A stretch of 64,000 nucleotides of DNA from an uncultured Methanosarcinales archaeon (GTDB lineage: Archaea > Nanobdellota > Nanobdellia > Woesearchaeales > CAZYIM01). The DNA lies in contig CAZYIM010000007.1 in the NCBI GenBank assembly GCA_964647565.1, forward strand, positions 1 to 64,000. Reading direction: 5' to 3'. Numbering within the stretch: the stretch's first letter is position 1; each line of letters begins with the position of its first letter. The position numbers and the translations under genes were made by a program. Below, in pieces: positions 30,501-50,442 of the stretch. The notes under the pieces were generated by a model that worked only from the letters and a program-made list of their open reading frames with translations, was not told the DNA's origin and searched no databases.

Positions 30501-33500
30501 GTTCTCATCTGTCTTGATAAGCCAGAAATCAGAACCACCATAGGCTGCATAGGAGGTAGTGTAACCAGATATGATAAATCCATTATCTGAGGTCTCTTGC
30601 ACATCATAACCCCAATCATTATTTGATCCTCCAAAGGTATAGTTCCACTCATGACCTCCAGTGCTGTTGGCCTTGATCAACCAGATATCGTCATTTCCTG
30701 CACCATATGAATTAGTGGATCCTACCATAATAAATCCTCCATCAGAAGTCTGGTCCAGAGCCCTGGCAATATCATTATTGGTTCCACCATAAGTCTGGTT
30801 CCATAAAGGAGTACCATTCTCATCTGTCTTCAGCAACCAGAAATCATTGACATTGGTTGAATCAACCCTCAGGTAACCAGCAACAATCAGTCCACCATCA
30901 GGAGTCTCCTGGATATCGTAACCTGCATCTGGGAATAATTTACCATAACTTTGGTTCCATAGCACAATTCCCGAACCATTTGTCTTGACTATCCAAAGTT
31001 CATCAGGGGGATCTACGCCATATGACTCTGTGTAGCCAACAATCGCGTAGCCGCCATCAGAGGTATTGGTAACTCCAAAAGCATCCCTATCATTAGCTGC
31101 TCCGCCAATACTGCTATTCCACAATATGTTCCCTGCTGCATCTGTTTTTACAAGCCAGAAATTATAATCAGTTCCAGGGAAGGATGTAGATTCACCAGCT
31201 AAGATATACCCTCCATCAGGAGTTTGCTTAAGGGCTTGTCCCCTATCAATCCAAGGTCCGCCATAGGTCTCATTCATTTCAATTGTAGGAGGTGCTGCGC
31301 ATGCCATCCAATTCTGCCCTACATAACTGCCTCCGCAGCTGTTGCTGTCTGTCCAGCCGCCGACACAGGTCTGATTACCATTCAAGCACATACTCCACTG
31401 ATCGCATGTCCAATTGGCATTGCCGCAGGTCAGGATGTCAAACATAGTCGTATCCTCAGCCCACAAACCTGTATAGTCTGTTGCATTTTCAGGGTCATCC
31501 ACCCAGGCCATATTAGTCACGTTATTGGCACTGCAGTTAGCAGTTATATTAACCAAAACAATGAAACTCTGACCAGATGTAAGATTGACACCGAAATTCG
31601 TGGTCAGATCTGTCCATTGCAGCAACTCATTTGCCAAGTCAACTGTATCTGGCGCTGGTGATGCCCAACTATAGTTCAGGCAGCTCGTATTAAATGTGTC
31701 CTCCAAAGGCACGCCTACAAATGTTGTGTTACCTGTGTTCGTGATGTTAATCTCGAACTTAATGGTCTCATTAACCCAAGGCATTCCATTTGGCATAACT
31801 TTGGTCTTGATAACACTGATGTTCTGACCTGATCCTCCGCTTGGCGCATCTTCTGTACATACAGAAGGCTCACCAGTGCAGGTCCATCCAGATTCCTCAT
31901 GGCATACTGAGTCACAGCCGTCTCCTGATTCAGGAGGACTATCTCCGTCATCACACTCTTCTCCGCCAGTAATAGCACTGTCACCACAGACATCCTCATG
32001 TCCTGGTCCTGGTCCACCCATCACAGGCACCCATCCACCAGTATCATTGGTGTATTGCCATCCGCTGTTGGGCACAAGATCAACAGTAGAGCTTAGGTTT
32101 GCCGCATAATAATTTACTGGATTACATCCATTTTGGTCACACCAGTCCATGGTCCAGCTAGAGTAGTATGCTGTCCAGTTGGTCATATAGACTCCAAGCA
32201 GGATCTGCTCAGGGTCATTGAAGGCCATCAATGACTTATCAACCTTGAAATCAATAGTCCCAAAGTCACAGACAACAGAGTAGTTGGCCTGACTTGGACT
32301 TGCATTGACAACCTGCCACACACCTGCAGAACATCCATAAAGGGTTCCGTTCACATAGCTTGCGCTCTGCCTGAACCTGACTTCGTACTTATAGTCAGCT
32401 CCAGTAGCATCACACGTACCACCAGGTACTGTGTCATAGAAGACCACATATCTCTGGCCATTGATTTGGCCCCTGTCAGTACTCGGGTATGAACCTCCAC
32501 AGTATGGTATGCCGCCATGCCATTCAAAGCCACCTGTCTCCATCTGGACATATATATAACTAGAGTCATTGGCCACATAAGCAGTGGTTATATCTCCACC
32601 TGGGCTTCCTCCGAATGGCTTAGCTTCATCAGCGCCTTCGTTACCATCCCAGCCCCAGTTGACACCTGCTGACCAGTTGCCAAAGGCATCACTAGACTTG
32701 TTCCAATTATAAAGCCAGGCAATATTAGATGAATCATAGTATTCACAGTTACACCAGCACTCTGCTATTGTATCCTCACCAAATGGTGTTGCTGTACAAT
32801 TCGCAGACGTCTGGCAATCACAGTTGCCTCCCATATCACTATGACACTGATGGTCCATCTGATCGCACCACTCACCTTGTGCACAATCAGAATCAGAACT
32901 GCATCCAATATGGTCATCCGGAAGATATACACATCTACCAGCTTCACAGAAAGCAGTATGGTCTGGAGGTGTATCCAGACAATTTGCAGCCTGCGTACAT
33001 TCTAGAGCAGTTGCATTCTCAGACCTGCACTCATAGTGCTCACAGAAGTCATAGGTGTTTGCATTGGAATCATCACAATCACTATCTTCTGCACAATTGC
33101 CTGTGACATTCTCACAATTGCCCTGCCAGTTACAGATTCCATAGAGGCCCATGCTAGCATTGTTTGAACACTCAAAGTCAGAAGTACATGAGACCGCACT
33201 CACATTGTTGTGCACACATTCCATAAGCACACAGACATCCCATGTTGAGTTGTCGTCGTCATTACAATCTGTATTTCTCATACATTCTCCTGCACTGCTG
33301 TTGACCTCATACTCAAGAGCCAGCATGTTCTCAAAGTTTGCATTGAACATGAATCCAGATCCTTTGTCCTGGATCGGCACCATGGTTAAGTATTCGCCTG
33401 GCCTATTCCTTGCCAACACCATGAAATGAGTCAATCCTCCAATATTAGGATTGAGATAGGTCTCTCCACCATAGAAGTCCTCTTTACCAGACTCTGGACC

Positions 33501-36500
33501 TCCACCCATCATCTCCTGCATAGATACAACTCCGTTTGACTGTCTCATATGCTGCGCAAATGGCGCTATAGCATATGCAGCAGCATTTGCAGGGCTTGTA
33601 TTGATATTTATCGATACAAACTCATTAGCCTGCACAATCGGATTATCCACTGTTGTCAAGAACGCAGAGCTTCCATTCTCATAGATAAGAATCATTCCAT
33701 CCAGGAATTCAATCATCTTACACTCTGTACCATTGTGTTCTTCATCAAACCAACAGTTGTTAGGATCAAGGATGTCTGTTATCAACATCACAGGTCCTGG
33801 GCTTGCATTAAGAGGTATGGTCAGATTAAACTCTACTGTTCCATTGTCAAATGCTACAACATCAGGAAGCTCATCCAGCATCACATCTGTAAGGAAGCAC
33901 ATGCCGCCTGAGCCGCCGCCACCACCAGATGGAGGGGCTGTGTTGTCAGGAGTTCCTTCTGGTCCGCCGCATTCATTACATCTAGTGTCACAATCTACAG
34001 CGCATGGTGATCCTCCAGGACAACCACTGCAATCAGTTTCACAAAAACCTCCTGGTTCGCAGTCTGGACTTCCTTGTTCAGGACCATCCATCATATGGTC
34101 TTCCCAGCTGCATCCGGGTGTTGAGTTGCAGGCATCCTGTGACCATTTGGACATACACGCCATCTCTTCTTCCATGTTGGCAAACTTAGATTCCTCTAGA
34201 GATGCAGAAACCGCATACTCATTGCCAACAGGGCTTCCATTGGTATAAAATGCTGTTATAGTTACTGGAATCTCATCACCAGGGAAAAATCCTAACTGTC
34301 CTGTATTTAGAGTCAGGTTGAATTTTCGGACAATGAAATTCTTATGGGTCCAGAACCAACCTTTCTCATGGGCATCGACATTCACCATAACCTCGTATTC
34401 TCCTTTTTTCAGAGCATTCTCTCCTGAGAAGTCAAAGGTGGCAACACCATTGTAGTTGGTATGCTTTTCTTCACGGATTCCTCCTCCGCCACCGCCAAAG
34501 CCGCCTCCGGTCTTGACAGCGTGACATTCATCCATTCCATAGTCATACCAGCACCAGCCTTCCTGATTCATGCATTCTGGCTCATTACCATCATAGTTGG
34601 CACATTGGCTATCCAGGAAAAGACAGTTAGGTTCCTCCCACCAACAACCCTCTTCAGGCATACATTGTACTGTTGTGTTTTTCTCAGAACAGTTGACCTC
34701 TTCTTCCTCTTGGGCTGCTCCGCCTTCAAACCAGTGTCTGCGAAGTTCCAATTCAACTCTGGCATTATCAATAGGTGATCCTGTCAGCGCATCACTTGCA
34801 ATGACAGTGATGGTTGCATCATCTCCCTGATAGAGCACTTTTTTCTGGCCGTCGATATCAACATCAACATTCAGTCCCTTGATCCTGAACCATCTCTGGA
34901 TCTTCTGGGTATCGACACCATCGCTTACCTCAAGCACCAGCTCATATTCAGATGGATGGCCTGGAGCCTGGAATTCTCCGATATATTCTCCATTGGCATC
35001 AGTGTAACCTGTTAAGTTAAAGGTCCTCTCAACCATATGACCTGCCCAGATATTCCTAAGCTCGATCCATTCAACACTTGCGTTGAATAAAGGTGATCCA
35101 TTGTAATATGTCACTTTTAACCAGAAACTTACATTCTGGTTGGCCATGATATTTTCAGGCATCAACATTGCAGGCTGGAAAGATGCAATATTAAACCAGG
35201 TATCCCTAAAGATATTCAAGTCTTCACACCAGACCTTCGCCATATACTCTTTTGCTTCGAGATCAGATGGTACCACCCATTTCAACATTGTCATTGGAGG
35301 TCCCCATGGATCTGTCGGGTACTCTAGCCATTGGGTCAGGTCGCCAGATGTCTTGACAACATCCCAGGTCTCTGAATCCCTTATTTCAGCAATCTCTATG
35401 TTGCCGCAGATAGCAGTCTCATTCTCATTGAACCAGCTCTGCCTGTTCCAGATCTCTACATTTACAGTGGCGTTTTGGCCTGTCCAAAGATTCCAGTTCT
35501 CTGTCCATGCATCGAACTGATAGTCTGCTTCTGCTCCTCCGAGCACCTCGAACCAAAGCCATTTCTCCTTTTCAGGATACCAGCCACCCCAATCACCTTG
35601 TTTTCTGAGTTCTACGATTGCTTCATATTCCCCAGAATCCATTGGTGCTGAGAAATTCAGGGTGAATGCACCGCTAACAGCCTCTAAGGCATCATAGTCC
35701 AAGCACTGGCCTATCCAGTGGGTCCGCCAGTCTCTCAGGCTTTGGACCCTGTCTAAACAAAGCTCTGATTTGTTATCATAGCCAGTAACATTGATAGATA
35801 CAAAGACCAAATCTCCTGGGCCTTTGCTATCCACATCATAGTTAGAGGTATCGTTGAGTGTTGGATCTGCTGTTAGCTCAACAGCCCAACTCGTTGCAGT
35901 TATCCTAAACCAGCGCCTCATCATGGTTGTTGATGCACCGTTTTGTATCTGGACTTCCATATCATAGTCCTTACCTGCAGTAAGATTAGCAATTCCAAAC
36001 CTTAACTCAGCAAGTCCATTTGCGTCTGTTGATGTATCTGTTGTGATACCTGTAATGTCACTCATTACACTCGTACCAGGCCCATTATGACCTATCTGCC
36101 AGACATCAATGAGTGTTACATTTGCTCCTGCTATTGCAGAACCGTTCTGATAGTTTACATCAACACTGACCACTACATTTGCAGTGGTAGGGAGTTCCCA
36201 ATCACCATAGGTTGCGTCTTCTCCAGTGACCTCTCCCCACACATTCATCCAGACATCGAATGGGCTTACCATTACGCCCCACCATCTTGTGACTGCACCG
36301 TTACCGATGTCTATCTCAAGATCATAGAATCCGTTGGCATCAGCTGGAAGGTCATAGTTGATGGTTGCTTTTCCATCTGCATCTGTGTCTCCGGCACTGC
36401 CATTGGCTATATCATTCCAGTTATCGGATTCGCTTCTGACTGTATAGTTCACTGACATGCCGCTGACAGGAGTGCCGTCATCTTCTTTGACATACACTTC

Positions 36501-39500
36501 AAGTGATAGAGTATCTCCTGCTGCATAAGGCCAAGGAGTTATTTCATAAATATCCACCCAAAGACTTGATGAGCTGACAGTTACTGTCCTTATCTCATTT
36601 TGGTCTGTCCAGTTGAGGATCGCTCTGAAGCTTCCCTTAAGATGAGGTGGTATTGTAAATGCAAGCTGGGCCTCACCATTGGCATCAGTAGTATCAGTGG
36701 TAGTTGTCAGATAGCTTACATCTATGGTCTGATTACCCCATTCAACATACTCAAGCTCCATGGTCTGACCGCTGATACCGCTACCATCAGGATTCCTGGC
36801 ATTGACAAACAAGTTGACAGTGTCTCCTGGCTTATAGTCTGGCCTGTCTGGCCATGCCCAGAAGTCTCCTGCAGATATCCTGAACCAGACATGCCTTATG
36901 ACCTGGTTGCTGCCTATATTGAATGCAACTTCTGCTTCATACTCGCCTAATGCAACTTGCGGGTTAAAACTAAAGCTTACAACACCGTCGCCTCCAATGA
37001 CTAGGTCGTTGGCAGTGATACCCACGCTGTCATTTAGAACATTCCAGTTCATCGGGTTGAAATATTGTAGTATTGTGACATTGATCTCTCCGCCATTCAG
37101 TGGATTGCCATCAACATCATATACAGTAAATTCAAGAGTCAGGTTTTCGCCATTGCCAATAAAGGTGTGCATGTTCTCCCAGTTGAAGAACACATCAAAT
37201 CCTGACTTGATATCAAATGGATAGTGAGCTTCCACATGCATAGGGCTATCAAGATCAGGGATGGCTGCGATTGCAACATACGGACCGCCGTCTGCAAAGA
37301 CCATGGTTTCCTGGTGGAATCCTGTTCCATCAGTAGTAAAGTCAGCCGTGAGTCCATCTAGTCTTACCCAACCGTCTGCATCAAAGATGTAAAGTTTTCC
37401 ATCTGTATCTGCAGGTCCTGAAATATTGAAATCAACATTATCTCCTGTTGAATACCTTGGCGGCTGAAAGTCCGGTGAGTCCATTGAAGAACCATCGCTG
37501 GTTATCAGGTCCAGATCATACTGCTTGACATAGAAGTGTATCATAGCCGTGTAGTTGACACCCAAATACTCTATTGCTACCTCAGCCTCGTAACCACCAG
37601 GATCAAGGGCAAAGCCTGTAAGGTTGACCAGTTTCCAACCTGCATTTGGAGAGTCTCCAACTGCCACAGTGAATTCAGAGGCCAGGTCAGTAGGACCATT
37701 CCATATATGCTGCAGATATACATCGCCATCTGCAACAGCTATAGCTCCGCCAACATTATTTTCCAGTTTAACCTCTAATGATATTGTATCTCCAGATGCA
37801 TAGCCACCCATTGGGTTAAATGGCCTGCCCCATGGGAAGACATTGTTATAGACATTGAAGGTGTATACCCTTTGGTCGCTTGTATTGGTGCATGTTGCAC
37901 CAGTATAGATACACAACTCAACATCAAATGTGCCTGATTGGGTCAGACCAGAAAGATCATATGTATAATTCTGTTCCTGTCCTTCACTGAAACTCTGCTC
38001 TGTACCTGCAATATTGACTGCTTGCCCAGTATCGATGTTAGTCAGGCCGGTAACATTTATCTTTATATCACCGCCAGTATTCACTCCAAAGACTAATGTC
38101 TGTCCCAGATCAATACCATATGTCCTCAGCCAAACATCATAGTCAAAAGTAGCACCAACTATCTCAAAGGTAACCGGTATTGACTTGATGTTATTATCAG
38201 TATCCTTTGCCTGAGTCACAAGCATATACTTGCCTTTCTTGGAGGGTGCTGTGAATCTCAATATGTTTGTTGTATCGAAGTCAGATGTCTTCTTAGCTCC
38301 AAGCTCGCTTACCCAAGGAGGTGGAGATGCAACCTTGCATTGAGGAGACAGGCAGGTGTATTGAACAAGCTTAAGCTCATTCATGTCAACTGCTCCGCCG
38401 CCAGGATTGCTCAACAAGAAATTGACGCTAATGTTGCTTTCAGGAACAAATTGTGTTGTCTGCGCTCCATTGCTGTCCTGAAGCTGGACTTCTACTTCTG
38501 TCTGATAAACTCCCAATTCACAAGGCCACATGCCTGCTGAATAGGAATCACTTGAAAGCTCCTCACCGTTCACAGATGGAATAGGTCTGTATCTGCCAAT
38601 TGAACTTGGTGCAGTAACAGTAATAGTAGCCACACCATCAGCATTGGTGGTTCCAGAGCTGGTTGTAGTCGCAACCTTGTCAGTCCATGACTCAAGATCT
38701 GTGAATTTAGTGATGCTCACATTTTGGTCAGCCACACCTGTTCCGTCTGTATTAGTAATAGTTATCTTGTACTGGACAGATGATGAAGGCGAGACTGTCG
38801 ATTGGTCTGAATCTACAAAAGAACATGACAGGCTTGAGAACTTTTGGATCTGCAAGTAGTCAATATATTCCTCTGCTTCTCCTGTGTTAGGATTAAAGGC
38901 ATCAATCACATAGACATAGACATCCTCTATTGCAGGGGTTGAGTTGACATTAAGCTCAAAGCTGCCCCATGCATTGGTTGTTGTAGGGCTGGCTCCTATC
39001 TGTTCTACAAGATCAAAGTTCTGTGTGTCATAGAATCCTTCAAAGGATATGTTGATATTAGGTATCAGGTTGAAATCCGGATCAAACACAAAGCCGTATA
39101 TAGTTGTCGGTACGCTTGGTTGTGCATAATAGAATGGCATGGTGTATGCGTAGACAAAGAATGATTTTACCATGAACCATGCTTCCCGGATCTCCTCAAC
39201 CGAACCTGTATCGACTTTCACGAACACAAGGTAGTCTCCTTTCTTAAGACTCTGGCCTGATTTAGGTTTTACAGTCACAACTGTCTGGCCGCCAGCAGTG
39301 GTGTTGGTGGTCGCAGTATATTTGTCTGTAGAGATGACCTTAGGAGATTTTCCAGATATGAACAACAGCTTATCAACAGTAACATTAGAACCATTTGGAA
39401 CTGGCGTGCCATTAAAGAAGTTGGCAGTCACTGATAATTGCACTGTATCAGTAGGTTTGAAGACAAATGCAGAGCTTCCTGATCGCTGCGTATCTACAAA

Positions 39501-41612
39501 GACATCAAGATTGCTGACCTGGAAGAAAGCTGTCCCTGTATCAACACTACCCTCATCATCTGTAACCTCTACTTCTGCTTCATAGAATCCTGAAGTCAGG
39601 CTTAAAGGTTCCAAGGAGAGATTGATCACTGGTTTTCCCTTGCTTCCTGTTGTTGCATTGACTACTGCATGTCCAGTAGAGGTAACATTCATACCCTCTT
39701 CGCTCACACTGTAGGTGGTGCCTGTTATTATATTGGTCAGACCAGTCAATTCGACTGTCAACTTGGAAGCAGCAACCTGCTGCCAGGCATCATTCATAAC
39801 ATTGACATGGAAATAGGCATTTGAATCAGAGGCAAACCTCCAAGCCCAATCCCAATTGGCACCTGTTTTTTTCTTGGTCTCAACCCAGATATCATACTTC
39901 TGGACGCAGACTTGCTCTTGAGTATAAGAGGTTCCATTGGCAGTCTCAACTTTCATTGTACAGACATAGCATCCACCGTCAGACGGCGCACTCATGTTTA
40001 CACTTGAACCGTTATTTGTGGCATCACCACCACTAAGCATATCATCTGTAACATCATTGCCGTCGCCGTCAACACAGCCTTCGACAGTGACCCTGTCTAC
40101 AGAAGTCTCAAAGTTGCTTGACAGCCAGGCCTCAGTATCAAAGGTAAGGCTCTCGCCTGAGCGGACCTTCCATTTCATGTTCTCAAACCTGTCTTTTACA
40201 GATGCGGTCGAGAAAACACTCTGGACTGTGATGTAGACAGTACCAGTTATGTAAGAGGTTGTTGTATTGACTCTTATCTTCAATTCATAGGTTCCACCAG
40301 TATTTGGCGTCACGAAATTGAGGAATTTGGTAAAGCCCTCGATTGTACTATCCGCCATGGTGCCAGTTGTGGGCAGATCTGCCAGGCAGTCCTTGCCGTC
40401 CTTCTTGCAGGATATGATATCTGCGTCTGTTATCTGGCTGCTGACATAGGAGTCGCCTGTTGCCAGATCAACTACATTGATGCCTACTGTAACATTATCA
40501 TTCTTGAGAAAAGCTGTGATATCCTTATTTGCGAATATTGGTTCCAGTTCAAGATCAAGGCTATTGATAATCATGAATTTCTTCTGGGTCACAGACTGCG
40601 TCTTTGTGGCTGTGACTTCAACATAATAATTTCCGCTCTGCACTGAATTAAGCTTGTATGGCGTTGAGGTATAGACGCCATCGCTCTCAGTGAAATCAGA
40701 AGCACTAAAAGTATGCTGGGTTGTTCCTGAAGTATCTTCATTGTTGGACTTTAGTTGTGCAGAAATCTGGACACCAGAAACAGGTACAACGTTTCCGCCT
40801 GAACTCTCTTTTGTGATAATTACTTTTACGCTGACATTGTTAGCTGTGCTGAACTTATTGGTCTTAACATTCTTATCATTCAATAGGATGACATCAACAT
40901 TGAAGTAAGGAACCTTGAACATTGCCATGGACTTGCCGTTCTTGACATCAACCAGGTATTCACCATAGGCTGCAGCCTCATCTGGTACAGTGTAGATCAC
41001 AGTTGCAGTACCATTGGTTGTTGTTAAGCCTGGCTGGTCAATGACTGGCGTTCCGTCTTCCCTGAAAACTATCAGAGGAACCTCTGCACCATCTGCAGGT
41101 GTCTTAGTGCCATTGGCATCAATATCATAGACCTCTATTGTTATGGTGACATTGTCACCGATGTCATAGATATATTGATCAGTGTAAACTTGGTATTCTC
41201 TTTCTCCCTCAACAAAGAAGAAGGCAAAGCCCATTGTGGGCGGCATGGGGGGTATAGCGTTGCTCAGAAGTTGTACGATAGCAGTATATTGTCCAGAGGT
41301 GCTCGTACCAGTGAAATTGTCTGAGGTGAACTTACCTTCAGCGTCTGTAAGCAGGGTGCCCTGCGCATTGACAGTCGTGCTTGAACCCGCCGGATTGCGG
41401 ATAACAACAGATATATTACGATTCGCCAGAGGGCTGCCGCTACTGTCTAAGGCTAATCCTCCAACTGTGACAATGTCATCTGTCTGGAAGTGCATGGTCG
41501 GATTGATGTTGACCTGCACGCTGTCTGCCATTACATAACTTCCTGCCAGTACAAAAACAATGCACAACAGAAACATGGTTTTGTTTAACAAATTGTTTGC
41601 TCTATACCTCAT
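27516..41612 (-). CDS. 4698-aa giant secreted protein (macroglobulin-like domains, Cys-rich/DUF4215, DUF11-like, beta-propeller, S-layer-like C-terminus)
   Basis: Signal peptide; repeated TDQYIY.IGD.V and PDRPDYKPGDTV motifs; CGD...EECDD...GDGC repeats; QT.DGG.I..G...D.WL.KTD repeats; GAGGTG RBS. Confidence 0.9.
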   Translation of the reverse strand: MRYRANNLLNKTMFLLCIVFVLAGSYVMADSVQVNINPTMHFQTDDIVTVGGLALDSSGSPLANRNISVVIRNPAGSSTTVNAQGTLLTDAEGKFTSDNFTGTSTSGQYTAIVQLLSNAIPPMPPTMGFAFFFVEGEREYQVYTDQYIYDIGDNVTITIEVYDIDANGTKTPADGAEVPLIVFREDGTPVIDQPGLTTTNGTATVIYTVPDEAAAYGEYLVDVKNGKSMAMFKVPYFNVDVILLNDKNVKTNKFSTANNVSVKVIITKESSGGNVVPVSGVQISAQLKSNNEDTSGTTQHTFSASDFTESDGVYTSTPYKLNSVQSGNYYVEVTATKTQSVTQKKFMIINSLDLELEPIFANKDITAFLKNDNVTVGINVVDLATGDSYVSSQITDADIISCKKDGKDCLADLPTTGTMADSTIEGFTKFLNFVTPNTGGTYELKIRVNTTTSYITGTVYITVQSVFSTASVKDRFENMKWKVRSGESLTFDTEAWLSSNFETSVDRVTVEGCVDGDGNDVTDDMLSGGDATNNGSSVNMSAPSDGGCYVCTMKVETANGTSYTQEQVCVQKYDIWVETKKKTGANWDWAWRFASDSNAYFHVNVMNDAWQQVAASKLTVELTGLTNIITGTTYSVSEEGMNVTSTGHAVVNATTGSKGKPVINLSLEPLSLTSGFYEAEVEVTDDEGSVDTGTAFFQVSNLDVFVDTQRSGSSAFVFKPTDTVQLSVTANFFNGTPVPNGSNVTVDKLLFISGKSPKVISTDKYTATTNTTAGGQTVVTVKPKSGQSLKKGDYLVFVKVDTGSVEEIREAWFMVKSFFVYAYTMPFYYAQPSVPTTIYGFVFDPDFNLIPNINISFEGFYDTQNFDLVEQIGASPTTTNAWGSFELNVNSTPAIEDVYVYVIDAFNPNTGEAEEYIDYLQIQKFSSLSCSFVDSDQSTVSPSSSVQYKITITNTDGTGVADQNVSITKFTDLESWTDKVATTTSSGTTNADGVATITVTAPSSIGRYRPIPSVNGEELSSDSYSAGMWPCELGVYQTEVEVQLQDSNGAQTTQFVPESNISVNFLLSNPGGGAVDMNELKLVQYTCLSPQCKVASPPPWVSELGAKKTSDFDTTNILRFTAPSKKGKYMLVTQAKDTDNNIKSIPVTFEIVGATFDYDVWLRTYGIDLGQTLVFGVNTGGDIKINVTGLTNIDTGQAVNIAGTEQSFSEGQEQNYTYDLSGLTQSGTFDVELCIYTGATCTNTSDQRVYTFNVYNNVFPWGRPFNPMGGYASGDTISLEVKLENNVGGAIAVADGDVYLQHIWNGPTDLASEFTVAVGDSPNAGWKLVNLTGFALDPGGYEAEVAIEYLGVNYTAMIHFYVKQYDLDLITSDGSSMDSPDFQPPRYSTGDNVDFNISGPADTDGKLYIFDADGWVRLDGLTADFTTDGTGFHQETMVFADGGPYVAIAAIPDLDSPMHVEAHYPFDIKSGFDVFFNWENMHTFIGNGENLTLEFTVYDVDGNPLNGGEINVTILQYFNPMNWNVLNDSVGITANDLVIGGDGVVSFSFNPQVALGEYEAEVAFNIGSNQVIRHVWFRISAGDFWAWPDRPDYKPGDTVNLFVNARNPDGSGISGQTMELEYVEWGNQTIDVSYLTTTTDTTDANGEAQLAFTIPPHLKGSFRAILNWTDQNEIRTVTVSSSSLWVDIYEITPWPYAAGDTLSLEVYVKEDDGTPVSGMSVNYTVRSESDNWNDIANGSAGDTDADGKATINYDLPADANGFYDLEIDIGNGAVTRWWGVMVSPFDVWMNVWGEVTGEDATYGDWELPTTANVVVSVDVNYQNGSAIAGANVTLIDVWQIGHNGPGTSVMSDITGITTDTSTDANGLAELRFGIANLTAGKDYDMEVQIQNGASTTMMRRWFRITATSWAVELTADPTLNDTSNYDVDSKGPGDLVFVSINVTGYDNKSELCLDRVQSLRDWRTHWIGQCLDYDALEAVSGAFTLNFSAPMDSGEYEAIVELRKQGDWGGWYPEKEKWLWFEVLGGAEADYQFDAWTENWNLWTGQNATVNVEIWNRQSWFNENETAICGNIEIAEIRDSETWDVVKTSGDLTQWLEYPTDPWGPPMTMLKWVVPSDLEAKEYMAKVWCEDLNIFRDTWFNIASFQPAMLMPENIMANQNVSFWLKVTYYNGSPLFNASVEWIELRNIWAGHMVERTFNLTGYTDANGEYIGEFQAPGHPSEYELVLEVSDGVDTQKIQRWFRIKGLNVDVDIDGQKKVLYQGDDATITVIASDALTGSPIDNARVELELRRHWFEGGAAQEEEEVNCSEKNTTVQCMPEEGCWWEEPNCLFLDSQCANYDGNEPECMNQEGWCWYDYGMDECHAVKTGGGFGGGGGGIREEKHTNYNGVATFDFSGENALKKGEYEVMVNVDAHEKGWFWTHKNFIVRKFNLTLNTGQLGFFPGDEIPVTITAFYTNGSPVGNEYAVSASLEESKFANMEEEMACMSKWSQDACNSTPGCSWEDHMMDGPEQGSPDCEPGGFCETDCSGCPGGSPCAVDCDTRCNECGGPEGTPDNTAPPSGGGGGSGGMCFLTDVMLDELPDVVAFDNGTVEFNLTIPLNASPGPVMLITDILDPNNCWFDEEHNGTECKMIEFLDGMILIYENGSSAFLTTVDNPIVQANEFVSININTSPANAAAYAIAPFAQHMRQSNGVVSMQEMMGGGPESGKEDFYGGETYLNPNIGGLTHFMVLARNRPGEYLTMVPIQDKGSGFMFNANFENMLALEYEVNSSAGECMRNTDCNDDDNSTWDVCVLMECVHNNVSAVSCTSDFECSNNASMGLYGICNWQGNCENVTGNCAEDSDCDDSNANTYDFCEHYECRSENATALECTQAANCLDTPPDHTAFCEAGRCVYLPDDHIGCSSDSDCAQGEWCDQMDHQCHSDMGGNCDCQTSANCTATPFGEDTIAECWCNCEYYDSSNIAWLYNWNKSSDAFGNWSAGVNWGWDGNEGADEAKPFGGSPGGDITTAYVANDSSYIYVQMETGGFEWHGGIPYCGGSYPSTDRGQINGQRYVVFYDTVPGGTCDATGADYKYEVRFRQSASYVNGTLYGCSAGVWQVVNASPSQANYSVVCDFGTIDFKVDKSLMAFNDPEQILLGVYMTNWTAYYSSWTMDWCDQNGCNPVNYYAANLSSTVDLVPNSGWQYTNDTGGWVPVMGGPGPGHEDVCGDSAITGGEECDDGDSPPESGDGCDSVCHEESGWTCTGEPSVCTEDAPSGGSGQNISVIKTKVMPNGMPWVNETIKFEINITNTGNTTFVGVPLEDTFNTSCLNYSWASPAPDTVDLANELLQWTDLTTNFGVNLTSGQSFIVLVNITANCSANNVTNMAWVDDPENATDYTGLWAEDTTMFDILTCGNANWTCDQWSMCLNGNQTCVGGWTDSNSCGGSYVGQNWMACAAPPTIEMNETYGGPWIDRGQALKQTPDGGYILAGESTSFPGTDYNFWLVKTDAAGNILWNSSIGGAANDRDAFGVTNTSDGGYAIVGYTESYGVDPPDELWIVKTNGSGIVLWNQSYGKLFPDAGYDIQETPDGGLIVAGYLRVDSTNVNDFWLLKTDENGTPLWNQTYGGTNNDIARALDQTSDGGFIMVGSTNSYGAGNDDIWLIKANSTGGHEWNYTFGGSNNDWGYDVQETSDNGFIISGYTTSYAAYGGSDFWLIKTDENGTHLWNVSIGTAGNEFGSYGIGQTSSGGFVLVGFSDSVLGAGSEDLLIVQTNSTGEVEWGLLWGYVPTENGYDVIVAEDNSVVIVGNTDSLGAGNEDFWLVKFSNGSAPSVPDVCGDGSPTGSEVCDDSNTVTETCGDGTIHSGSYCNNDCTAVLNLNEECDDSNTDNGDGCDSVCLNEAPQGPPVSTSGFLLNPQFRNFTISDETEFNATRSGIGLHQWMNNASLINLYCYTTDTTGSCDPVVDQPNVLHLMGSNDEELLGVIEQGVKLRSDCTYYNLTFEGRAGVDNTILVHVHNTTMGTLFNETATILNATGAAYGVYTFNMTQFNNYPGQTMMIEIWNTLDSNVWSHIRNLSLNAVCGQPAVTSAAWNLDVPLGTQLRDPGMFGSIVNNQDISEMIETVMNININGVNNDYNFSEDLVLNPGIAVETGLTFLPSDAWQERVFIPITVADLYYNPHFDDGLQNGNYISNTSPTEFILLPFLGKTLKIVGAPSDDSVTVELDNGSTKTYSHNDAFMGEDVTNPIWTWVLSGLDTQYMTLGTRWFLDVDDPDETENPAIQHPLYVGEEACTPGNYLCIKFDGLSSTDIITYDFEMSTQDLYALPGNPSPDVSSAKVLRFESVSNGNVGLIVGGKTTDEAYLYSDGSSLDIYYRDVGTSKAVFHRSLTTNADAVFFIDTGVTSIPIDIHWDTTNDNGTFIIVDSDQDIFLYFEEDPSNPGEFNYFGHSTSRTSITDDVLYGTRDISAWNQSTRTKDGHAIWTPWNWADTDRVRLNISVPVVNSYTLYTVDTVVESLYANGLDGSPLHAGESSLRISSNTTNTGISINGTITDKVYLYSSNFSIDVFYWDSVNNKAVFVTSLPTGGSNLFFLDPANMNLGVDVAWDPANDNGNISLPGGFETLDIYFEANTTWPARTRIDYFGHSPADTTTTNDIIYDTVDVSDWENDLPLDNGVILLDPLADQAADQCQLRVPADPTNFWADVSLYMNSTGGVW

Positions 41613-41910: not shown

Positions 41911-42285
41911 TTATTGTCGTTTTCCTACACTCTTAAACTCTAAGAATTGATATAGATGGTTATTTTCTAAATTATCAAAAGTGTCTAGTTCAAGATGTCC
42001 AATATCATCCAGATCTCCGTTGTAAATAAGGAGTTTCCTCCTGGTATCAATAATGACCTCTTTAGGATTCCCACCTAGAAATTCTGTCCTATGTTCATAA
42101 GGAAGCAACTCTTTAGCAGTCTTCCTAAACCATTCTTTATATTGATATATTGTTGGTTTTGGAGTTTCATCCAGAAAATCCGATAACCTTTGGATTACAT
42201 CATATACTTTGCCACCGTCATGAGTGGTCGAACCATACAACGTATCTTTACCGATTCTTAGTTCAAGATTGCCTATAGTAGCCAT
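41911..42285 (-). CDS. Hypothetical protein
   Basis: ORF with a TATA box about 25 nt upstream. Confidence 0.65.
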   Translation of the reverse strand: MATIGNLELRIGKDTLYGSTTHDGGKVYDVIQRLSDFLDETPKPTIYQYKEWFRKTAKELLPYEHRTEFLGGNPKEVIIDTRRKLLIYNGDLDDIGHLELDTFDNLENNHLYQFLEFKSVGKRQ

Positions 42286-42392
42286 ATTAAAAAGGTAACT
42301 CTAAGTAGTATATAAATATTAGGATATTCCACTAGAAAAACGACTGAAAAACAACCAGCCACTACACAGATAATACCTTAGAATAATAAACC

Positions 42393-42582
42393 AATCCCTG
42401 GCGGCAGACGATGCAATAGAAAGTTATCAATCCAGCCATTCATGGCGGCCAGACGGTCGTGCTTTGCACGCCCTGTAGGGGGTGTCTGTAGCACTTAGAA
42501 AAGCTTCATTTTTCTGGTGTCCCAGAAAGCTTTGTTTTCTAAGGAGAACAACCCACCCTCCTATCTGCGCCATGTCTGGATT
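42393..42582. ncRNA. Unidentified structured non-coding element
   Basis: About 51% GC intergenic island with nested helices 42429-35/42576-82, 42441-47/42568-74 and 42480-84/42554-58, plus a hairpin at 42458-70. Confidence 0.5.
42491..42544. repeat. Double REP-like palindrome
   Basis: gcac-tt-agaaaa...ttttct-ggtgt immediately followed by cccagaaag...ttttctaagg. Confidence 0.65.
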
Positions 42583-42637
42583 TCAAACTAATAGCCACAC
42601 ATTAAAAAAGAAATAATCTATCTCCATACCCTACTAC

Positions 42638-45600
42638 TTACTTAAACAGCTTCTTGATCTGCTTCTTGGACCAGCCCTTGGCCTTCAAAGCCTTGCTGAT
42701 GTCTTTCTTAGAATATCCCTTGTCAAGTTGATGCGCTACGAACTTCTCCAGCTCCTTCCTCTTAGCATCTGTCAAACCGACTTTAGCCTCTTTCTTGGCG
42801 TCTTTCTTAGTCTCTTTCTTAGTCTCTTTCTTCTTTTCTATCTTCTTCTCTTCTTTCTTATGTTTTTTCTTGCCTTTCTTTTCTGCTTTGTCAGCCTTAT
42901 CAGGAGGAGGAGCCTTTTTGACATCCTTAGCCTCTGCTTTCTTGAGTTTCTTGGCAGATGTATGCAGAATGTCATCCACAACCTTAGCTTTCCATCCTTT
43001 GGCCACCAAAACATCTCTTATATGGGCGTGGTCGTGACCTTTCTCCATCTGGTGCTCAATAAAGGATTCAAGCTGTTTAATCTTGTTGTGAGGCATATGC
43101 ACATTATGCTCAATTAACTCTTTCTCATCAATCTTGAACTTCTTTTTATTCTGCCTAGCAGTAGCTAAGATCATCCACCATCCTACGATCAGCATGACCA
43201 ATAATAGCACAAGCCATGGCCATAGCTCCTTGATCTTCTTGATAAAGACAGGAGGTACTGGCGGTTCAATTACATCATCACTTGGTCCACATAGGGAAGG
43301 CATGCCTGTACAACGCCAACCTGCCTCAATTGCGCATGCATCTGAGCAGCCATCTCCAGTCACCAAGTTGCCATCATCGCACTCTTCTCCTTCGCTGAGT
43401 ATACCATCTCCGCAAACCAATAATGGAGCCACTACTTCTTTGGTCTTGAGGCCGATTGCATAGTAGCTCAAGGCTTCTGAAGTTGCCATATAGTAGTAGA
43501 ATGTATCATCTTCATCTACTAATGTAGTTGGCAATATATTCCATTTATTATCCTCAAACCTATAGAGCACTACATCTCCAGGTTCTGCTGCATATGAGCT
43601 CACCCAGACCTTTGCAACCTTGAAATATATCTTGGCAGATGAGATCTGGTCATCATCAAGGTTATCTTTTGTGATCTCAAGGTATTTGTAAGCCTTGTTA
43701 GCTTCAACATCAACTGGCGAAGCATCAAGCAGTGTGACAGTGATCTTGACATTTCTGGCCACCTTCTCGAAGACCACATCAATCTTGCTCACTGCCTTAT
43801 TAGGATCAGTGACATCAAGGCTCTTGGTCTCTCCAGCCCTGACCAGGGTCCATACGTCTGGATCCGTGGCAGCACTACTTCCGCCACCACCTACAGTATC
43901 AGGTTCAATATATATACAAGCCCTGTTGTTGCCGCCGCCATAAACAGCACCGCAGCTGTTGGCATCTGTCCATCCAGTACAGCTTTGTATTCCATTTGAT
44001 TGACAAGTATTCCATCCATCACAGGACCATGAAGGCGTACATGTTGAGTTAGTCTGGCTAAGAGCTGTATGGTTCAGACCCTCAACTACAAACTTGTTGA
44101 TATCAGCATCATAGTTACAGATGTACTGTCCGAAATATGTTGCGCCGTCGCAAGGTATTATCATTTCTTCAGTTCCATTACATAGGGAAGATATCTCGCT
44201 GACAGAGGCAACCGGCTTATCCTTGACACAGACCTTCTGCTTAGATGCGTCGATCCTGGTTATCCTTACTGTCTTGGTCTCTGACTGTCCAGTCAGGTTG
44301 ATACCTGTTATCACAACCACAGACACACCTTCTCCTGTATCTGGGTCAACTACGATCTCTTCGTTGATTGTGACATTTGAAAGGTCCAGTTTGGTTGTAT
44401 TTGCGAAAGTGAAGTTGAACTCAACAATTGGAACAGCCTCAGTCTGGTTAGTGGTCTCATTGATGACATTGGCCATGAACTCTATCTTTTTCTCACCAGC
44501 AAACTCCTGGCTTGTGTTGGTTGAGTTCTCAACCCTGAATGTCAGGTTATCGATATTGGTGTCCACAAAGCTGACATTACCTAAGAGGAAGTCAACAGAT
44601 TCGTTGATCGGATCATTATCAAAGTCAGCTCCCTGGTCTTCGTCGCAAGCATCTCCAATTGTATCTAGATCAGTATCTGCCTGTCCAGCATTGGCCACAA
44701 ACTTACAGTTGTCAGCATAATCTGAGACACCGTCGCCGTCAGAGTCCCTGACATCAGTCGCAGTTAGGTTCCAGGTCTGGGTTGTAGTGTCAATACCATC
44801 AGTTACCTCAGCAATGATCGTGTAGGTTCCAGCAGATAGTGAGTCTGGCACCATGTTGAACCAGCCTCCTGTGCTGTTATAGGCAGTTGCATCTTCTCCC
44901 TTCCTTACAAACCACTGTGCCTGGGCAGTATTGTCGCCCTGCGCATCCGTAAAGGTTACACTGTAGTTGATGGTCTGGTCTTCTCTTATTGTTGTTGCCA
45001 GATCCTGAGTTGCAGCGGCTGCACCAACCTTGCTTGAGAAGTTGGTGATGACCGGAGCAGCATTGGTGTTGTTGATGAACGCATTGAAGGTCTCGCTGTC
45101 CCAGCTATTGCCGTCTGTTACATTGATTATGACATTGTTATGCCAGCCTATGGTCTCGCCGGAAGTGATCCTGACAGTTGCGCTTGCAACTGCATCGTTA
45201 GTTACAGTTAAGTTAGCCAGAGTACTAGCGCTCTGTACAGCAAATGTAAGGTTGGCGTCCTCTTCATCAACTGCGCTGACTGTGTAGGCATTGAGTGCAG
45301 TGTTGATGCCTGTCAGGCCGCCTATTGGATTAAGTACCGGTGCATCATTGACTGGATTGATGGTCAAGGCAAAGACATCGCTGTCAACACCGCCTCTTCC
45401 GTCGTATACACTCACTCTTATATTATAGGTGCCGTTCTGGTTGTTCACAGGTGTGAAGTTAATCACTCCCTGGCCATTAACAGTTGTGATCGTAAATAGT
45501 GTGCTATTGGTTCCAAAGGTCAATGGATCTCCATTGCCATCTGTTGCATTTGCAATGTGCACAAAGTTAGTATCCTCAGTTGCAGTCCTGTCTGCCACAG

Positions 45601-46804
45601 TTCCAATCACAGGAGCTACGTTGGCAGGTGTTGCATTCAAGGTGAAGACAGCATCGCTGTCATCCAAGGCCATAAAGCCGTTGTTGTCTGTTGCATACAC
45701 CCTGACTTCTGCATCAGTTGCATTGACATTTGGTATGGTCCATGCATATGTGCCATCATTGCTCTCATTCTGAGCAACCAATACCCAGCCAGTGCCATTG
45801 TAGAAGCGTATTATAATAGAGTCAGCTAATACGCCGCTTGGATCCGTAGCAGTCCAGAGGATATTCTGAGTTGAGTTGAAGACCCAGTGCTCTCCACCGT
45901 TTGGTGAGATCACTGCGACAGTAGGTCCTGAATTATCAATAGTAATATTCTCATTGGTTGATGATGCATTGCTGCCATCAGATGTAAAGGCAACTGCTCT
46001 TATATAATAGGTGCCATCAGCAATTCCTGCAGAGTTGAATGTATAGCTACTGTTGACAACAGTGTCAGTTCCAATGGTTGCCCAGCTCACATTGTCTGTT
46101 GAATACTGGAAGGTCACATTGATGACTGATGCGCCAGCAGTGTAGTTAGCTTCATAGTTGCCAAAGACAGTCTCATCATCTGCAGGCCTGGTTAACACAA
46201 TGAACACAGATCTTGCCACATCAAAACTTGATGAGCTTTCTGTCTTATATTGCCTGTGTACTCCGTTTCCAAATGCCTCTGCATAGAAATCAGCATTATA
46301 GTCGCCATTTATTGGTTCAGAAGAATTGAAGTTCCATACGATTGTAAATTTCAGTTCATCAAGGACAGCAGTTTCATATCCATATCCGTATCCTGTTCCA
46401 AAACTGGTATTCTGATATATATAGGGGCCTGTTCCATCGCTTGAATATCCATAGCCCCAACTTAGGCCTGAGCTGCCCATTGGAACATTGACTGGTGTGA
46501 TTACAAGGTTCTCACAGCCAGAGATGACTGTGCCATTAAAATAGAATGTGCAGGTCTTGTTGACAGGACCCACGATCTCAAGAGTCAAATTATTGACAGG
46601 CACCCTCTCACCATTTTCTATATTCATAGTGACATTCATGGTCAGAGAAGTGTCAGATGGTGTGACGCTTGAAGTGGAAAGATCTATAGTCAAGACAATG
46701 GCTTTTACAGGTCCAGAAATTAGAAGAAGGGTTATTACCAATAGAGTCACTGCAAGACTGATAATGCTTTTCTTGTTGATTATATGATGTTTTCTATCAC
46801 TCAA
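42638..46804 (-). CDS. 1388-aa membrane-anchored surface protein (cadherin-like/Ig, TSP3, PGF-pre-PGF, DUF4215, TM)
   Basis: TTG start behind an AGGTGAG RBS; PVNDAP repeats; DSDGDGV.D.ADNC; AYKYLEI...LSYYAIG; CGDG...EECDDGN; TM helix. Confidence 0.9.
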
Positions 46805-48549: not shown

Positions 48550-50442
48550 TCAGTTGTCAGAACCTATTAAAACCTGCACCGGCATAAATACCTGCTGAAA
48601 ACCAGTCCCTTTCTTGACAGTAAGCCTCAGAATATATAAGCCATCCTTATCGATGTTAATCACACCTAATACACCTTTACGGACTTGCGTCCCCGAGCCA
48701 ATTTGTTTCCAACAATCATTACACGGATAAGATGCTTTTCCTATTTCAAGGATATAGCTATCACCTGTTGCACTGCCCCTAACTTCAGTTCCAAAAGAGA
48801 CCACATCCCACATAAGAGAGTATATCGGATCTACATGGTACATTCTCGGACTTGAAATCCAAGCTACAGCTCCGCCAACCATCGAATCACTTATGCCAGC
48901 CAATGCTTTATGAACATTTACCCTGCCAGTTCCAAAATAAAAATAATCTCCGGGTCTGTCAAACATAGAGAAGTCTGTGCCAGGTATATCGACGCCTTGC
49001 TTGATAATATCTTTTAATTGATTAGGGTTAAGATTGGAGTTCTTTGACAGGATAAGACCAGCTAACCCTGCAACATACGGCGCAGCCATGCTTGTACCGC
49101 TGTAAGTATCATATCCATCAGGAACTGTCGAGATTATCTTACCGCCAGGTGCAGCAACATCTACCCAGAATCCGAAATTAGAAAAACCTGAAGGTTGGTT
49201 ATCTTCATCAAAAGATGCAACTGAAAAAACATCGCTAAATGCAGCAGGATATGATTCTCTGATAAACCCTGCGTTACCTGCAGCAGCCACCAGAAAGACG
49301 CCATTGTCATTTGCATAATCCAAGGTTTCTTCAAGAATAGATGAACGATATTCACCACCAAAACTCATAGATAGTATATCAACGCTATTATTTGTTGCAT
49401 AGTAGATACTTCTAATAACTGCGTCTGAGACAACTAGTCCGACCTCATAATAACCATCGGAGATGAATCTTTCTATGACACCTCCTGCCCTAAGGGGCAT
49501 AATCTTACAACCAGGACAGACCCCTGCAATACCCCTTGCATTATTTGTTGTTGCTGCAGCAATTCCTGCACAATGAGTTCCATGTCCATAATAATCCAAG
49601 GGCTCATTATCCCAGCCCATATAATCCTCCCCATCAATAAATCTATAAGGATCTGAGTTATATTTAGCAGGATCAAGATCAACAAAATCATAACCTGTAC
49701 CAGGAGGACACCCCTGGGTACAATCTGAAAGCATATTATCAAATAAATCCTCGTGAAGATAGTTTATACCTGTATCAATTACACCAATAACAACATGAGA
49801 TTTTCCACGCTCAATATCCCATCCTTTTTCTGCATCAGTCGCCCTATGAGCCCATTGCTGATCGTACAGCCCATCATTCGGCTTGAAGAAAGTGTAGTAT
49901 ATATAGTTAGGTTCGACATGCTCCACATTGGGATCCTGCTTAAGATCTTTTATCGCAGTCTCAACAGACCTCGCATCTTTAAGCTCGAGTTTGTATGTAT
50001 GACGTAGACTTGGATCTTTAACATTATCAGCCAATCCCTTGAAATCTACCACTCTATGCTTTTGCACGAGAACATTGACTGATTCCACACTGCTTAAGAC
50101 ATCAAGACCATAATTTACTGCCTGACCCGACACCCCCTGGCTGCCGACCAGTTTCTTCAATCCGGGATCATTCTTAAATTTGACAAGCACCTCTCCTGGC
50201 ATATAAGCAGGCAGTCTTTTTGCAACAGACAGCTTGGGCCCCCACACACCAGCACTAATACCATCAAGATTTAAACTCCTTCCATAATTCCTCAAAGCCC
50301 CACTTGATTGATCTCTTGCAAAACCCGCAAGGGATTCAGTTTCCTGTCCATCTAATCTGTTGTTCAAGAACAGGAGCGTTAATCCAGACATGACCACAAT
50401 TGCAATCAGAGAGTATATAAACGTAGAAGGCGGAGTTTTCAT
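48550..50442 (-). CDS. Subtilisin-like S8 serine protease
   Basis: VIDTG, HGTHCAG and SGTSMAAP catalytic triad; N-terminal TM helix and propeptide. Confidence 0.95.
   Translation of the reverse strand: MKTPPSTFIYSLIAIVVMSGLTLLFLNNRLDGQETESLAGFARDQSSGALRNYGRSLNLDGISAGVWGPKLSVAKRLPAYMPGEVLVKFKNDPGLKKLVGSQGVSGQAVNYGLDVLSSVESVNVLVQKHRVVDFKGLADNVKDPSLRHTYKLELKDARSVETAIKDLKQDPNVEHVEPNYIYYTFFKPNDGLYDQQWAHRATDAEKGWDIERGKSHVVIGVIDTGINYLHEDLFDNMLSDCTQGCPPGTGYDFVDLDPAKYNSDPYRFIDGEDYMGWDNEPLDYYGHGTHCAGIAAATTNNARGIAGVCPGCKIMPLRAGGVIERFISDGYYEVGLVVSDAVIRSIYYATNNSVDILSMSFGGEYRSSILEETLDYANDNGVFLVAAAGNAGFIRESYPAAFSDVFSVASFDEDNQPSGFSNFGFWVDVAAPGGKIISTVPDGYDTYSGTSMAAPYVAGLAGLILSKNSNLNPNQLKDIIKQGVDIPGTDFSMFDRPGDYFYFGTGRVNVHKALAGISDSMVGGAVAWISSPRMYHVDPIYSLMWDVVSFGTEVRGSATGDSYILEIGKASYPCNDCWKQIGSGTQVRKGVLGVINIDKDGLYILRLTVKKGTGFQQVFMPVQVLIGSDN

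Follow-up and report, generated by a model that had tools for sequence, protein, structure and literature searches.

The ERIC (IRU) elements of enterobacteria are intergenic imperfect palindromes of about 100-130 bp that lie in either orientation and have a conserved fold; relatives differ widely in the number of copies, and internal insertions occur in some variants. Structured non-coding RNAs (ncRNAs) have reportedly been found at IS1341-type tnpB genes. In the families of repetitive extragenic palindromes (REPs) and of their paired form, the REPINs, many units stand as head-to-head inverted pairs, and two tags, GTAG and CGTC, define super-families; the sections of PMC3733652 cited here describe these tags as unpaired, state that no dedicated transposase is known for the CGTC class and list host phyla that are bacterial. 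A census of MITEs (miniature transposable elements with inverted repeats) places a Woesearchaea genome among the MITE-densest archaea, the families themselves not being described in the part of that article cited here (PMC11602168). Here we analyze a GC-rich island at positions 42393-42582 of a 64,000-nt stretch of archaeal DNA, the start of contig CAZYIM010000007.1, to which we refer as a whole as the window. The island is one old copy of a dispersed structured repeat and not a one-off. On balance, we favor reading it as a diverged, probably immobile copy of a non-autonomous, dispersed mobile repeat of one DPANN order.

The repeat family to which the island belongs resembles REPs and REPINs in that its units are intergenic, multi-copy and patchy among related genomes, form head-to-head pairs and have a single-stranded fold that matters; moreover, the letters GTAG and CGTC flank one hairpin of the unit (P4) on its favored strand, as read from a sequence-only alignment (A4, described below). 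It differs in that the unit is about 100 nt long and has a three-way junction and a conserved bulge, whereas a REP is a single palindrome of 20-40 bp, in that the tag letters are partly base-paired, in that the host is archaeal (DPANN), and in that genes of the Y1/RAYT type are missing from the host genome and from 22 of the 42 genomes in which the family was found. Like MITEs, the units are short, non-coding, intergenic and multi-copy, and in one related genome (G048) they lie in a 182-bp element with 9-bp target duplications. In contrast to MITEs, the family has an internal folded core that is conserved across genomes, whereas the terminal repeats differ between two relatives (G048 and G080) and are missing in the host genome; its outer stem covaries copy by copy, unlike a fixed transposase site, and the window copy is without a target duplication. 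ERIC elements belong to another domain of life and are not known to have a sequence relation to the family, to which they bear a resemblance only. With the ncRNAs of IS1341-type tnpB genes the family would share a structured RNA that travels with mobile DNA, whereas the family units stand alone between ordinary genes.

A dispersed repeat family in the host genome and its order

A short-word BLAST search of the element against its own genome (G000; 2.68 Mb in 86 contigs, 38% GC) returned both arms of the closing helix together on contig C27, 85 nt apart, and more pieces on C2. At these places we could read complete units of 90-100 nt that lack the internal insertion of the window copy (referred to below as the apex), and regular-expression searches yielded more. 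A model built from four host-genome paralogues, R1, gave nine matches in the host genome, the window copy among them. A second model, R2, which was built from 41 copies of many genomes and has the opposite orientation to R1, gave 19 matches at E ≤ 0.1, which correspond to 18 distinct places, eight of them clear and about ten weaker. The clear copies are C2:9562-9664, C27:9610-9701, C3:23795-23896, C2:6691-6787, C3:43211-43316, C48:2303-2406, C7:71106-71204 and the window copy itself, C7:42428-42585 on the minus strand, which is the one family copy that the window contains. The window copy scores 46.9 bits with R2 (E = 4e-9) and 41.4 bits with R1. Its R2 score is the lowest of the eight clear copies because of a nested insertion, which also brings its length to 158 nt, compared with about 100 nt for the family unit. 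What the initial annotation had treated as a single unexplained element is thus a member of a multi-copy family.

In a sample of 151 genomes of the order, 115 of which are at least 90% complete, R1 (cut-off E ≤ 0.01) matched 31 genomes and R2 (E ≤ 0.001) matched 42, including 29 of the 115 more complete ones. These counts include an unpublished genome, G131, which is positive and supplies one row (L020) of each of the two alignments A3 and A4 introduced below. R2 matches across the sample numbered at least about 370, the best 26 per genome being scored. A single R2 match was present in 12 of the 42 positive genomes, and 109 of the 151 had none, among them the closed or nearly closed genomes G016 (one contig), G025 (one contig) and G028 (three contigs). 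The family is patchy and multi-copy, and near-identical copies occur within one genome. In a phylum-level sample, all 24 positive genomes belong to the same order. A pattern scan of named species genomes listed 80 loci, 32 of which match R1; the records of 29 of these are titled Woesearchaeota, Nanoarchaeota or Nanoarchaeia, and the remaining three come from two small contigs of Methanosarcinales metagenome-assembled genomes (MAGs) and one Thioploca MAG. The other 48 listed loci, mostly from high-GC bacteria, are chance pattern matches without an R1 match. The guess of a DPANN affinity is borne out by the record titles of the named matches, and the repeat is probably specific to one DPANN order (Woesearchaeota according to those titles). 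One exact-pattern scan of viral contigs, in which only one sequence variant was sought, gave one match, which was not confirmed by the model.

Known RNA families were searched at several levels; the element has no Rfam family, in line with its initial reading as novel, and no tRNA or signal recognition particle (SRP) signature, as first noted. Rfam 15 gave no match in the whole window at the gathering score, two chance long non-coding RNA matches when the region was searched at E ≤ 10 (24.5 and 11 bits, where the cut-offs are 50 and 45), three matches over eight loci with paralogues, none of which fell on the elements, and no match at E ≤ 1 over 18 loci from other genomes. ARAGORN found no tRNA in the window. 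A divergent 5S rRNA and a divergent SRP RNA were rejected as candidates, as the host has its own 5S rRNA at C16:2897-3012 (79.5 bits) and its own Archaea_SRP at C4:72228-72550 (94.4 bits), both at places without an R1 or R2 match. The hepatitis delta virus (HDV) ribozyme, the SRP Alu domain, 5S loop E, K-turns, H/ACA RNAs, integron attC sites and bulge-helix-bulge (BHB) introns were likewise set aside because their architectures do not fit, the tests being those with Rfam. The family is probably undescribed, no account of it having been found in the literature searched; the supplementary MITE sequence files of PMC11602168 may contain members.

The weaker places in the host genome include a second repeat type with an extra hairpin domain, present at C3:100738-100819, C8:61635-61718, C11:14966-15108, C44:12458-12530 and C61:8057-8150. 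Its P2/P3 helix and junction words are those of the main family, its P5 is a simple hairpin, and the added hairpin domain lies within a long outer stem; in the C11 copy there is a large internal insertion. About 1 kb from the S17e and Alba genes, beside the clear copy C2:9562-9664, there is a degenerate unit at C2:9480-9560. In another genome a copy (G129, locus L040) lies 70 nt from an Alba gene and has outer-stem words similar to those of the degenerate unit, and the two may perhaps share an old position.

Family fold and favored strand

The family unit, read on its favored strand, is about 100 nt long and is made up of an outer stem (P1), a bulge, the P2/P3 helix, a tight three-way junction, the P5/P6 arm and the hairpin P4. 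P1 has 7-10 bp and a sequence that differs in nearly every lineage; the bulge between P1 and P2, of 3-5 nt, lies on the 3' side of the unit. P2/P3 is an 11-bp helix with one bulged base and a nearly invariant sequence. P5 has 5-7 bp and leads to P6, a short C/G hairpin that follows a 7-nt G-rich bulge and whose closing pair is a conserved G-U. Between the P5/P6 arm and P4 lie 2-3 nt of junction; P4 itself is a 4-11-bp hairpin, whose sequence takes 39 forms in 41 copies. On the favored strand the P4 loop has the form C(GNA)G in 22 of 41 copies, and the P6 loops are pyrimidine-rich, 12 of 41 being readable as U-N-C-G. At the third pair of P4 in A4 we observed a recurrent G-A or A-G mismatch (GGGC...GACC or GGAC...GGCC), other copies having A-U at this position.

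Covariation was assessed on two alignments. A3 comprises 53 copies and is model-fitted, so that it leans towards its own structure; A4 comprises 41 copies aligned by MAFFT from sequence only, with the structure set by hand. On A3, 91.4% of cells are paired compared with 71.2% after shuffling, 23 of the 27 pairs show compensatory changes, and none of 500 shuffles reached any of the five measures used. On A4, 86.2% of cells are paired, a share that drops to 30-46% with slid partners, and compensatory changes are seen at 16 of 25 pairs. The outer stem P1, measured on A3, has compensatory changes at all 11 of its pairs and 95.5% of its cells paired, and on A4 all five pairs of P5 covary. P2/P3 (94.6% of cells paired) shows changes on both sides of 7 of its 11 pairs on A3 and of 5 of 11 on A4. 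Testing for covariation, as the initial annotation had proposed, therefore revealed compensatory changes on both alignments, and a family with a conserved, covarying fold exists.

The fold favors one strand. In 48 of the 53 copies the lower folding energy belongs to the reverse complement of the R1 orientation, with a mean of -53.1 kcal/mol compared with -49.5 kcal/mol, and this strand has 121 G-U pairs among 2054 predicted pairs, whereas the other strand has 35 among 1954. A G-U pair closes P6 in 35 of the 41 copies of A4, and several other positions alternate between G-C or A-U and G-U. These G-U pairs of the favored strand would be mismatches on the opposite strand, hence the strand preference. 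The favored strand corresponds to the minus strand of the window, which is the strand of the flanking genes. The data do not tell RNA from single-stranded DNA (ssDNA).

A second type of covariation links the G-rich bulge to P6. Letters one and two of the bulge are mirrored by the final two of the 3' strand of P6, in the combinations GG/GG, GA/GA, AG/AG and TG/CG. Agreement was found in 63 of 78 cells, compared with 47.0 ± 2.9 in shuffles, and none of 10,000 shuffles reached 63 in this test, which is inflated by relatedness among the rows; the exceptions are two of eight GA rows and four of nine AG rows. Such mirror covariation is compatible with base triples of the purine type, in which the bulge strand would run antiparallel to the purine strand of P6 and repeat its letters.

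Mobile repeat or structured RNA

We favor a non-autonomous mobile repeat because of the patchy spread of the family, its identical copies, its head-to-head pairs and its carriage in a MITE with 9-bp target duplications. The initial guess of a non-autonomous element fares well here, the family being patchy and multi-copy and, in one relative, MITE-borne with such duplications. In that relative, G048, all four copies are identical and lie inside a 182-bp unit with inverted-repeat ends, each flanked by different 9-bp direct repeats. The 16-nt end sequence occurs 32 times in this genome, often at contig ends, and brackets units of 126, 182, 214 and 258 bp, which suggests a MITE family with varied cargo together with an unassembled autonomous element. 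Contigs bearing the end sequence are C51, C60, C69, C83, C104, C107, C113 and others. In G080 the copies have other shared inverted ends and identical outer stems and differ in P4-P6, the P5/P6 module having been exchanged or lost among them together with its G-rich bulge. Such shared inverted ends of MITE type were seen in G048 and G080; the outer stems of the host-genome copies vary among themselves and covary.

Adjacent copies within 200 nt of each other are head-to-head in 14 of 14 pairs, several of which overlap by about 20 nt. In the host genome a degenerate inverted copy lies directly against C2:9562-9664, and another pair is found on C49. A composite of two units recurs in four genomes (loci L071, L100, L034 and L038); in it, the first unit is without an outer stem of its own, and there is overlap between the 3' strands of this unit and the outer stem that belongs to the second. 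Many family matches lie within a few hundred bases of contig ends. We propose that the units would spread as selfish DNA, and that the fold would be kept because the single-stranded form, either ssDNA during mobilization or a transcript, is recognized by a trans-acting enzyme or a host factor.

Several observations weigh against a mobile repeat. In G048, R1 and R2 each match the four 182-bp copies only, and since the 126-, 214- and 258-bp units with the same ends have no match to either model, the core is cargo there and may not be the mobile part. Flanking direct repeats are above chance in only two of the eight host copies, on C27 (11 bp) and at C2:9562 (17 bp), and both repeats resemble pieces of neighboring family copies; at the window copy the longest flanking direct repeat is 6 bp, the chance range being 5-9 bp, and a target duplication was not found. 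No mobilizing enzyme has been identified for the units, and the link to Y1 transposases is weak: the Y1_Tnp domain was found neither in the host genome nor in G004, G008, G029, G050, G075, G095, G131 and G147, which have from 12 to at least 26 copies each. The eight host copies differ by compensated changes in every helix, which purifying selection on a function predicts better than the decay of selfish DNA. Unpaired letters are kept in many families of the order, and a specific tertiary structure or a ligand is suggested by the G-rich bulge, by the short P5-P4 junction and by the G-U pair. Finally, the window copy opposes the G-U trend of the family, with five such pairs on the plus strand and two on the minus strand.

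Alternatively, the units would be genes for small structured RNAs (trans-acting RNAs, components of ribonucleoproteins or ribozymes) under purifying selection, some of them amplified by MITEs, with the window copy as a paralogue that was possibly disabled by the insertion of the apex. The deep covariation of the helices, the conservation of unpaired nucleotides and of the G-U pair (35 of 41 copies), the preference for one strand (48 of 53 copies; 121 compared with 35 G-U pairs) and the mirror covariation of G-run and P6 (63 of 78 cells), compatible with base triples, are all in accordance with such RNAs, and the host copies are old yet all still fold, three short paralogues giving z-scores of -1.7 to -6.2 over both strands. 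The occurrence of a single match in 12 of the 42 positive genomes points in the same direction, but the 109 of 151 genomes without a match, complete ones included, show that this is not a housekeeping RNA. In favor of such RNAs, the core in G048 is the cargo of only one of several units with the same inverted ends; against them, the copies of G080 lose or swap the P5/P6 module and the G-rich bulge with their outer stems identical, and near-identical multi-copy bursts occur in some genomes. In a flank composition profile of 53 copies we found neither a promoter-like AT block at a fixed distance upstream in either orientation nor a general downstream T-run, and where head-to-head pairs overlap by about 20 nt, promoters would not fit in. 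Genes for structured RNAs are thus a tentative explanation, less probable than a mobile repeat. Among the three readings offered at the outset, the novel non-autonomous structured element stands, the switch does not (see below), and a new structured RNA keeps a real chance.

A more doubtful proposal is that the unit is a new structured-RNA class and itself the active principle of a DPANN mobile element. The RNA would act as a small ribozyme or else would serve a recombinase as partner, guide or scaffold. A G-rich strand would then lie in the groove of P6, as the mirror covariation might indicate, and the fold would be conserved because the element needs its own RNA in order to move; we put this forward with similarly low confidence.

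It appears improbable that the units are REP- or REPIN-like elements handled as ssDNA by an HUH/Y1 (RAYT-like) transposase, with the three-way junction as the recognized DNA fold. Loops of the C(GNA)G type are unusually stable in DNA, and 22 of the 41 P4 loops have this form. The units are intergenic, and their 14 of 14 head-to-head pairs are arranged as described for REP families in the sections of PMC3733652 cited above; the letters GTAG and CGTC do flank P4 on the favored strand, but they are partly base-paired, whereas the tags are unpaired in that description. A unit of about 100 nt with three helices is also not a palindrome of 20-40 bp. The Y1 transposase domain (PF01797) occurs in 20 of 42 element-positive and 35 of 109 element-negative genomes and is thus somewhat commoner in the former, but it was not found in the host genome or in the eight copy-rich genomes named above, and the single Y1 gene of G080, the only genome in which flanking by units was looked at, lies about 6 kb from the nearest copy on its contig. 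The 22 flanking open reading frames (ORFs) that were scanned lack a transposase domain, one of them (in G015) having a phage-integrase domain; adjacency to tnpB was not searched genome-wide.

The copy in the window and its surroundings

The description of a GC-rich island in AT-rich spacers holds on counting, with a GC content of 0.50 across 42393-42582, 0.29 and 0.31 in the flanking spacers and 0.41 in the whole window. A 211-nt stretch over the island has minimum folding energies of -66.5 kcal/mol on the plus strand and -70.0 kcal/mol on the minus strand (z-scores of -2.8 and -2.6), and on each strand two of 200 shuffles equal it. That the fold exceeds chance follows from the recurrence of the architecture, with compensatory changes, in hundreds of copies, the single fold not being decisive.

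On the minus strand, the following parts of the family unit can be assigned in the window copy, and the helices of the initial annotation are recovered with one small correction. The outer stem P1 (aatccag/ctggatt) pairs 42429-42435 with 42576-42582; both arms are seen in sequence, in the fold and in family covariation. The unpaired bulge between P1 and P2 occupies 42436-42440, corresponding to the 3-5 nt found in family copies in alignments A2, A3 and A4. The conserved arm of P2/P3, with its one bulged base, lies at 42441-42454 and pairs with 42564-42574, which is backed by family covariation; within it, the helix catggcg/cgccatg pairs 42441-42447 with 42568-42574, whereas the helix cagac/atctg, claimed to have five pairs, has four (caga/tctg) and lacks the fifth. 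The side hairpin cgtgc-ttt-gcacg, which is P4 at the three-way junction (42455-42472; sequence and fold), the gggtg/caccc helix and the double palindrome of the apex are all present in the sequence. P5 pairs 42476-42482, an arm read by analogy with the copy C2:9562-9664, with 42557-42563, an arm that rests on sequence and family covariation. At 42547-42556 lies the bulge that is conserved in A4, its plus strand rich in C and its minus strand rich in G.

The apex (42488-42544, 57 nt) sits in the loop of P6, and among the 53 aligned copies only the window copy has it. It consists of two tandem hairpins, each with an A-run arm and a T-run arm. The suggestion that 42491-42544 is separable proved right, the other 52 aligned copies being without it. 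Apex-like modules stand alone in the intergenic DNA of four of 60 relatives searched by BLAST (G013, G041, G030 and G011) and at three places in the host genome (C44, about 9600-9660; C45, about 5390-5460; C4, about 87490-87560). The apex is a separate small module nested in the unit, either a mobile piece or a terminator-like palindrome. The C45 and C4 copies are near-identical over about 100 nt, and loci L003-L006 are stand-alone, apex-like tandem hairpins with A-run and T-run arms.

Beside the intact copy, the partial duplicate aatccctggcggcagacg at 42393-42410 is real and can take the place of the proximal strand, as had been claimed. Its positions 42399-42410, read on the minus strand, match the family consensus 12-mer, i.e., the 3' strands of P3 and P2, and the fragment runs on into a P1-like arm. 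By its sequence, the stretch 42393-42412 (minus strand; 3' strands of P3, P2 and part of P1) reads as a broken end that comes from another family copy and stands in tandem with the intact copy. According to the mobile-repeat model, the window copy would later have been hit by the 57-nt tandem-hairpin module and would now sit beside this broken end.

A cis-acting, two-state regulatory switch of the riboswitch type for the flanking genes, with the aatcc..tggcggc..agacg copies as alternative partners, is very improbable. The duplicate exists and can pair, and composites in which one strand fits two near-identical partners recur in four other genomes, but with the proximal strand blocked the alternative fold is 16 kcal/mol worse (-52.9 compared with -68.8 kcal/mol on the plus strand, -55.8 compared with -72.0 kcal/mol on the minus strand). 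In 49 copies, the best downstream match to the copy's own 3' strand was no better than in three control flanks, so that the mutually exclusive pairing claimed for the window copy is not family-wide. The copies are also without a consistent gene neighbor or orientation: among 36 intergenic contexts, 11 are sense, 10 antisense, 9 divergent and 6 convergent, no constant position and orientation before a coherent set of genes was seen, and the 22 neighboring ORFs scanned are mutually unrelated. For the 124-aa ORF downstream of the island only two homologues were found, with 51% identity, on metagenome contigs, neither of which has a unit within 1.5 kb, and riboswitches do not show a multi-copy, MITE-borne spread. 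We therefore regard the switch as not supported, and reject it as a family feature, on the grounds of the worse alternative pairing, the lack of a family-wide duplicate and the lack of a consistent gene context.

The 48-codon ORF reported on the minus strand (42427-42573) does exist, starting at an ATG that is kept in 41 of 48 copies, but this ATG lies within the conserved P2 strand and belongs to its helix, the other seven copies have CTG or TTG, the frame from this anchor has 12-68 codons in the 48 copies (three more run off the flank read) with scattered stops and shifts due to changes in P4 length, and no Pfam match was found, so that a small protein is the least credible explanation of all and the coding reading is rejected. 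The initial annotation had named an Rfam family and a conserved 48-aa ORF as findings that would speak against it; both were looked for and neither was found.

The island does not lie directly between two giant surface-protein genes, as first described. One neighbor is a 1388-aa surface-protein gene (42638-46804) whose stop is at 42638, the other is the 124-aa ORF (41911-42285) with its start at 42285, and all are on the minus strand; a 4698-aa ORF (27516-41612, minus strand) comes further on, past the 124-aa ORF, in the ORF list of the window. The 1388-aa ORF has TSP_3, Big_9, Cadherin_5 and DUF4215 domains (Pfam) and a lysine-rich C-terminus, and a subtilase gene is located at 48550-50442. 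The 124-aa ORF is without a Pfam family, its 51%-identity homologues being those on the two metagenome contigs mentioned above. On one of these (L185), about 50 nt separate the homologue from the gene before it, which encodes a membrane-anchored surface protein, and a surface protein paired with a small ORF may be a conserved arrangement. DNA contigs from four public runs, which may include the sample of origin, reproduce the sequence of the region, and a 378-nt contig from one of them covers 42310-42687 with zero differences; no joined, deleted or insertion variants of the region were seen in the contigs of these four runs (depth of about 3). No public RNA runs are listed as holding the region.

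At this locus, the window copy would have no more specific effect than to put a very stable structure into the spacer that separates the 1388-aa surface-protein gene from the next ORF on the same strand. If transcribed, it might act as a protector of RNA ends or as a barrier to transcription, rather than as a ligand-sensing or two-state switch, and in annotation the island should be labelled neither a riboswitch nor a small gene. The family explains part of the contig breaks in these MAGs and offers a marker for strain typing. As an object of about 100 nt with a predicted tertiary contact between bulge and helix, it is also a target for structure probing and for a search for protein partners. 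The genomes of DPANN archaea are small, and there is hardly any knowledge of their non-coding RNA or mobile DNA; the family would be a new structured RNA or else, for this lineage, the first description of a structured repeat system of REP- or ERIC-like type.

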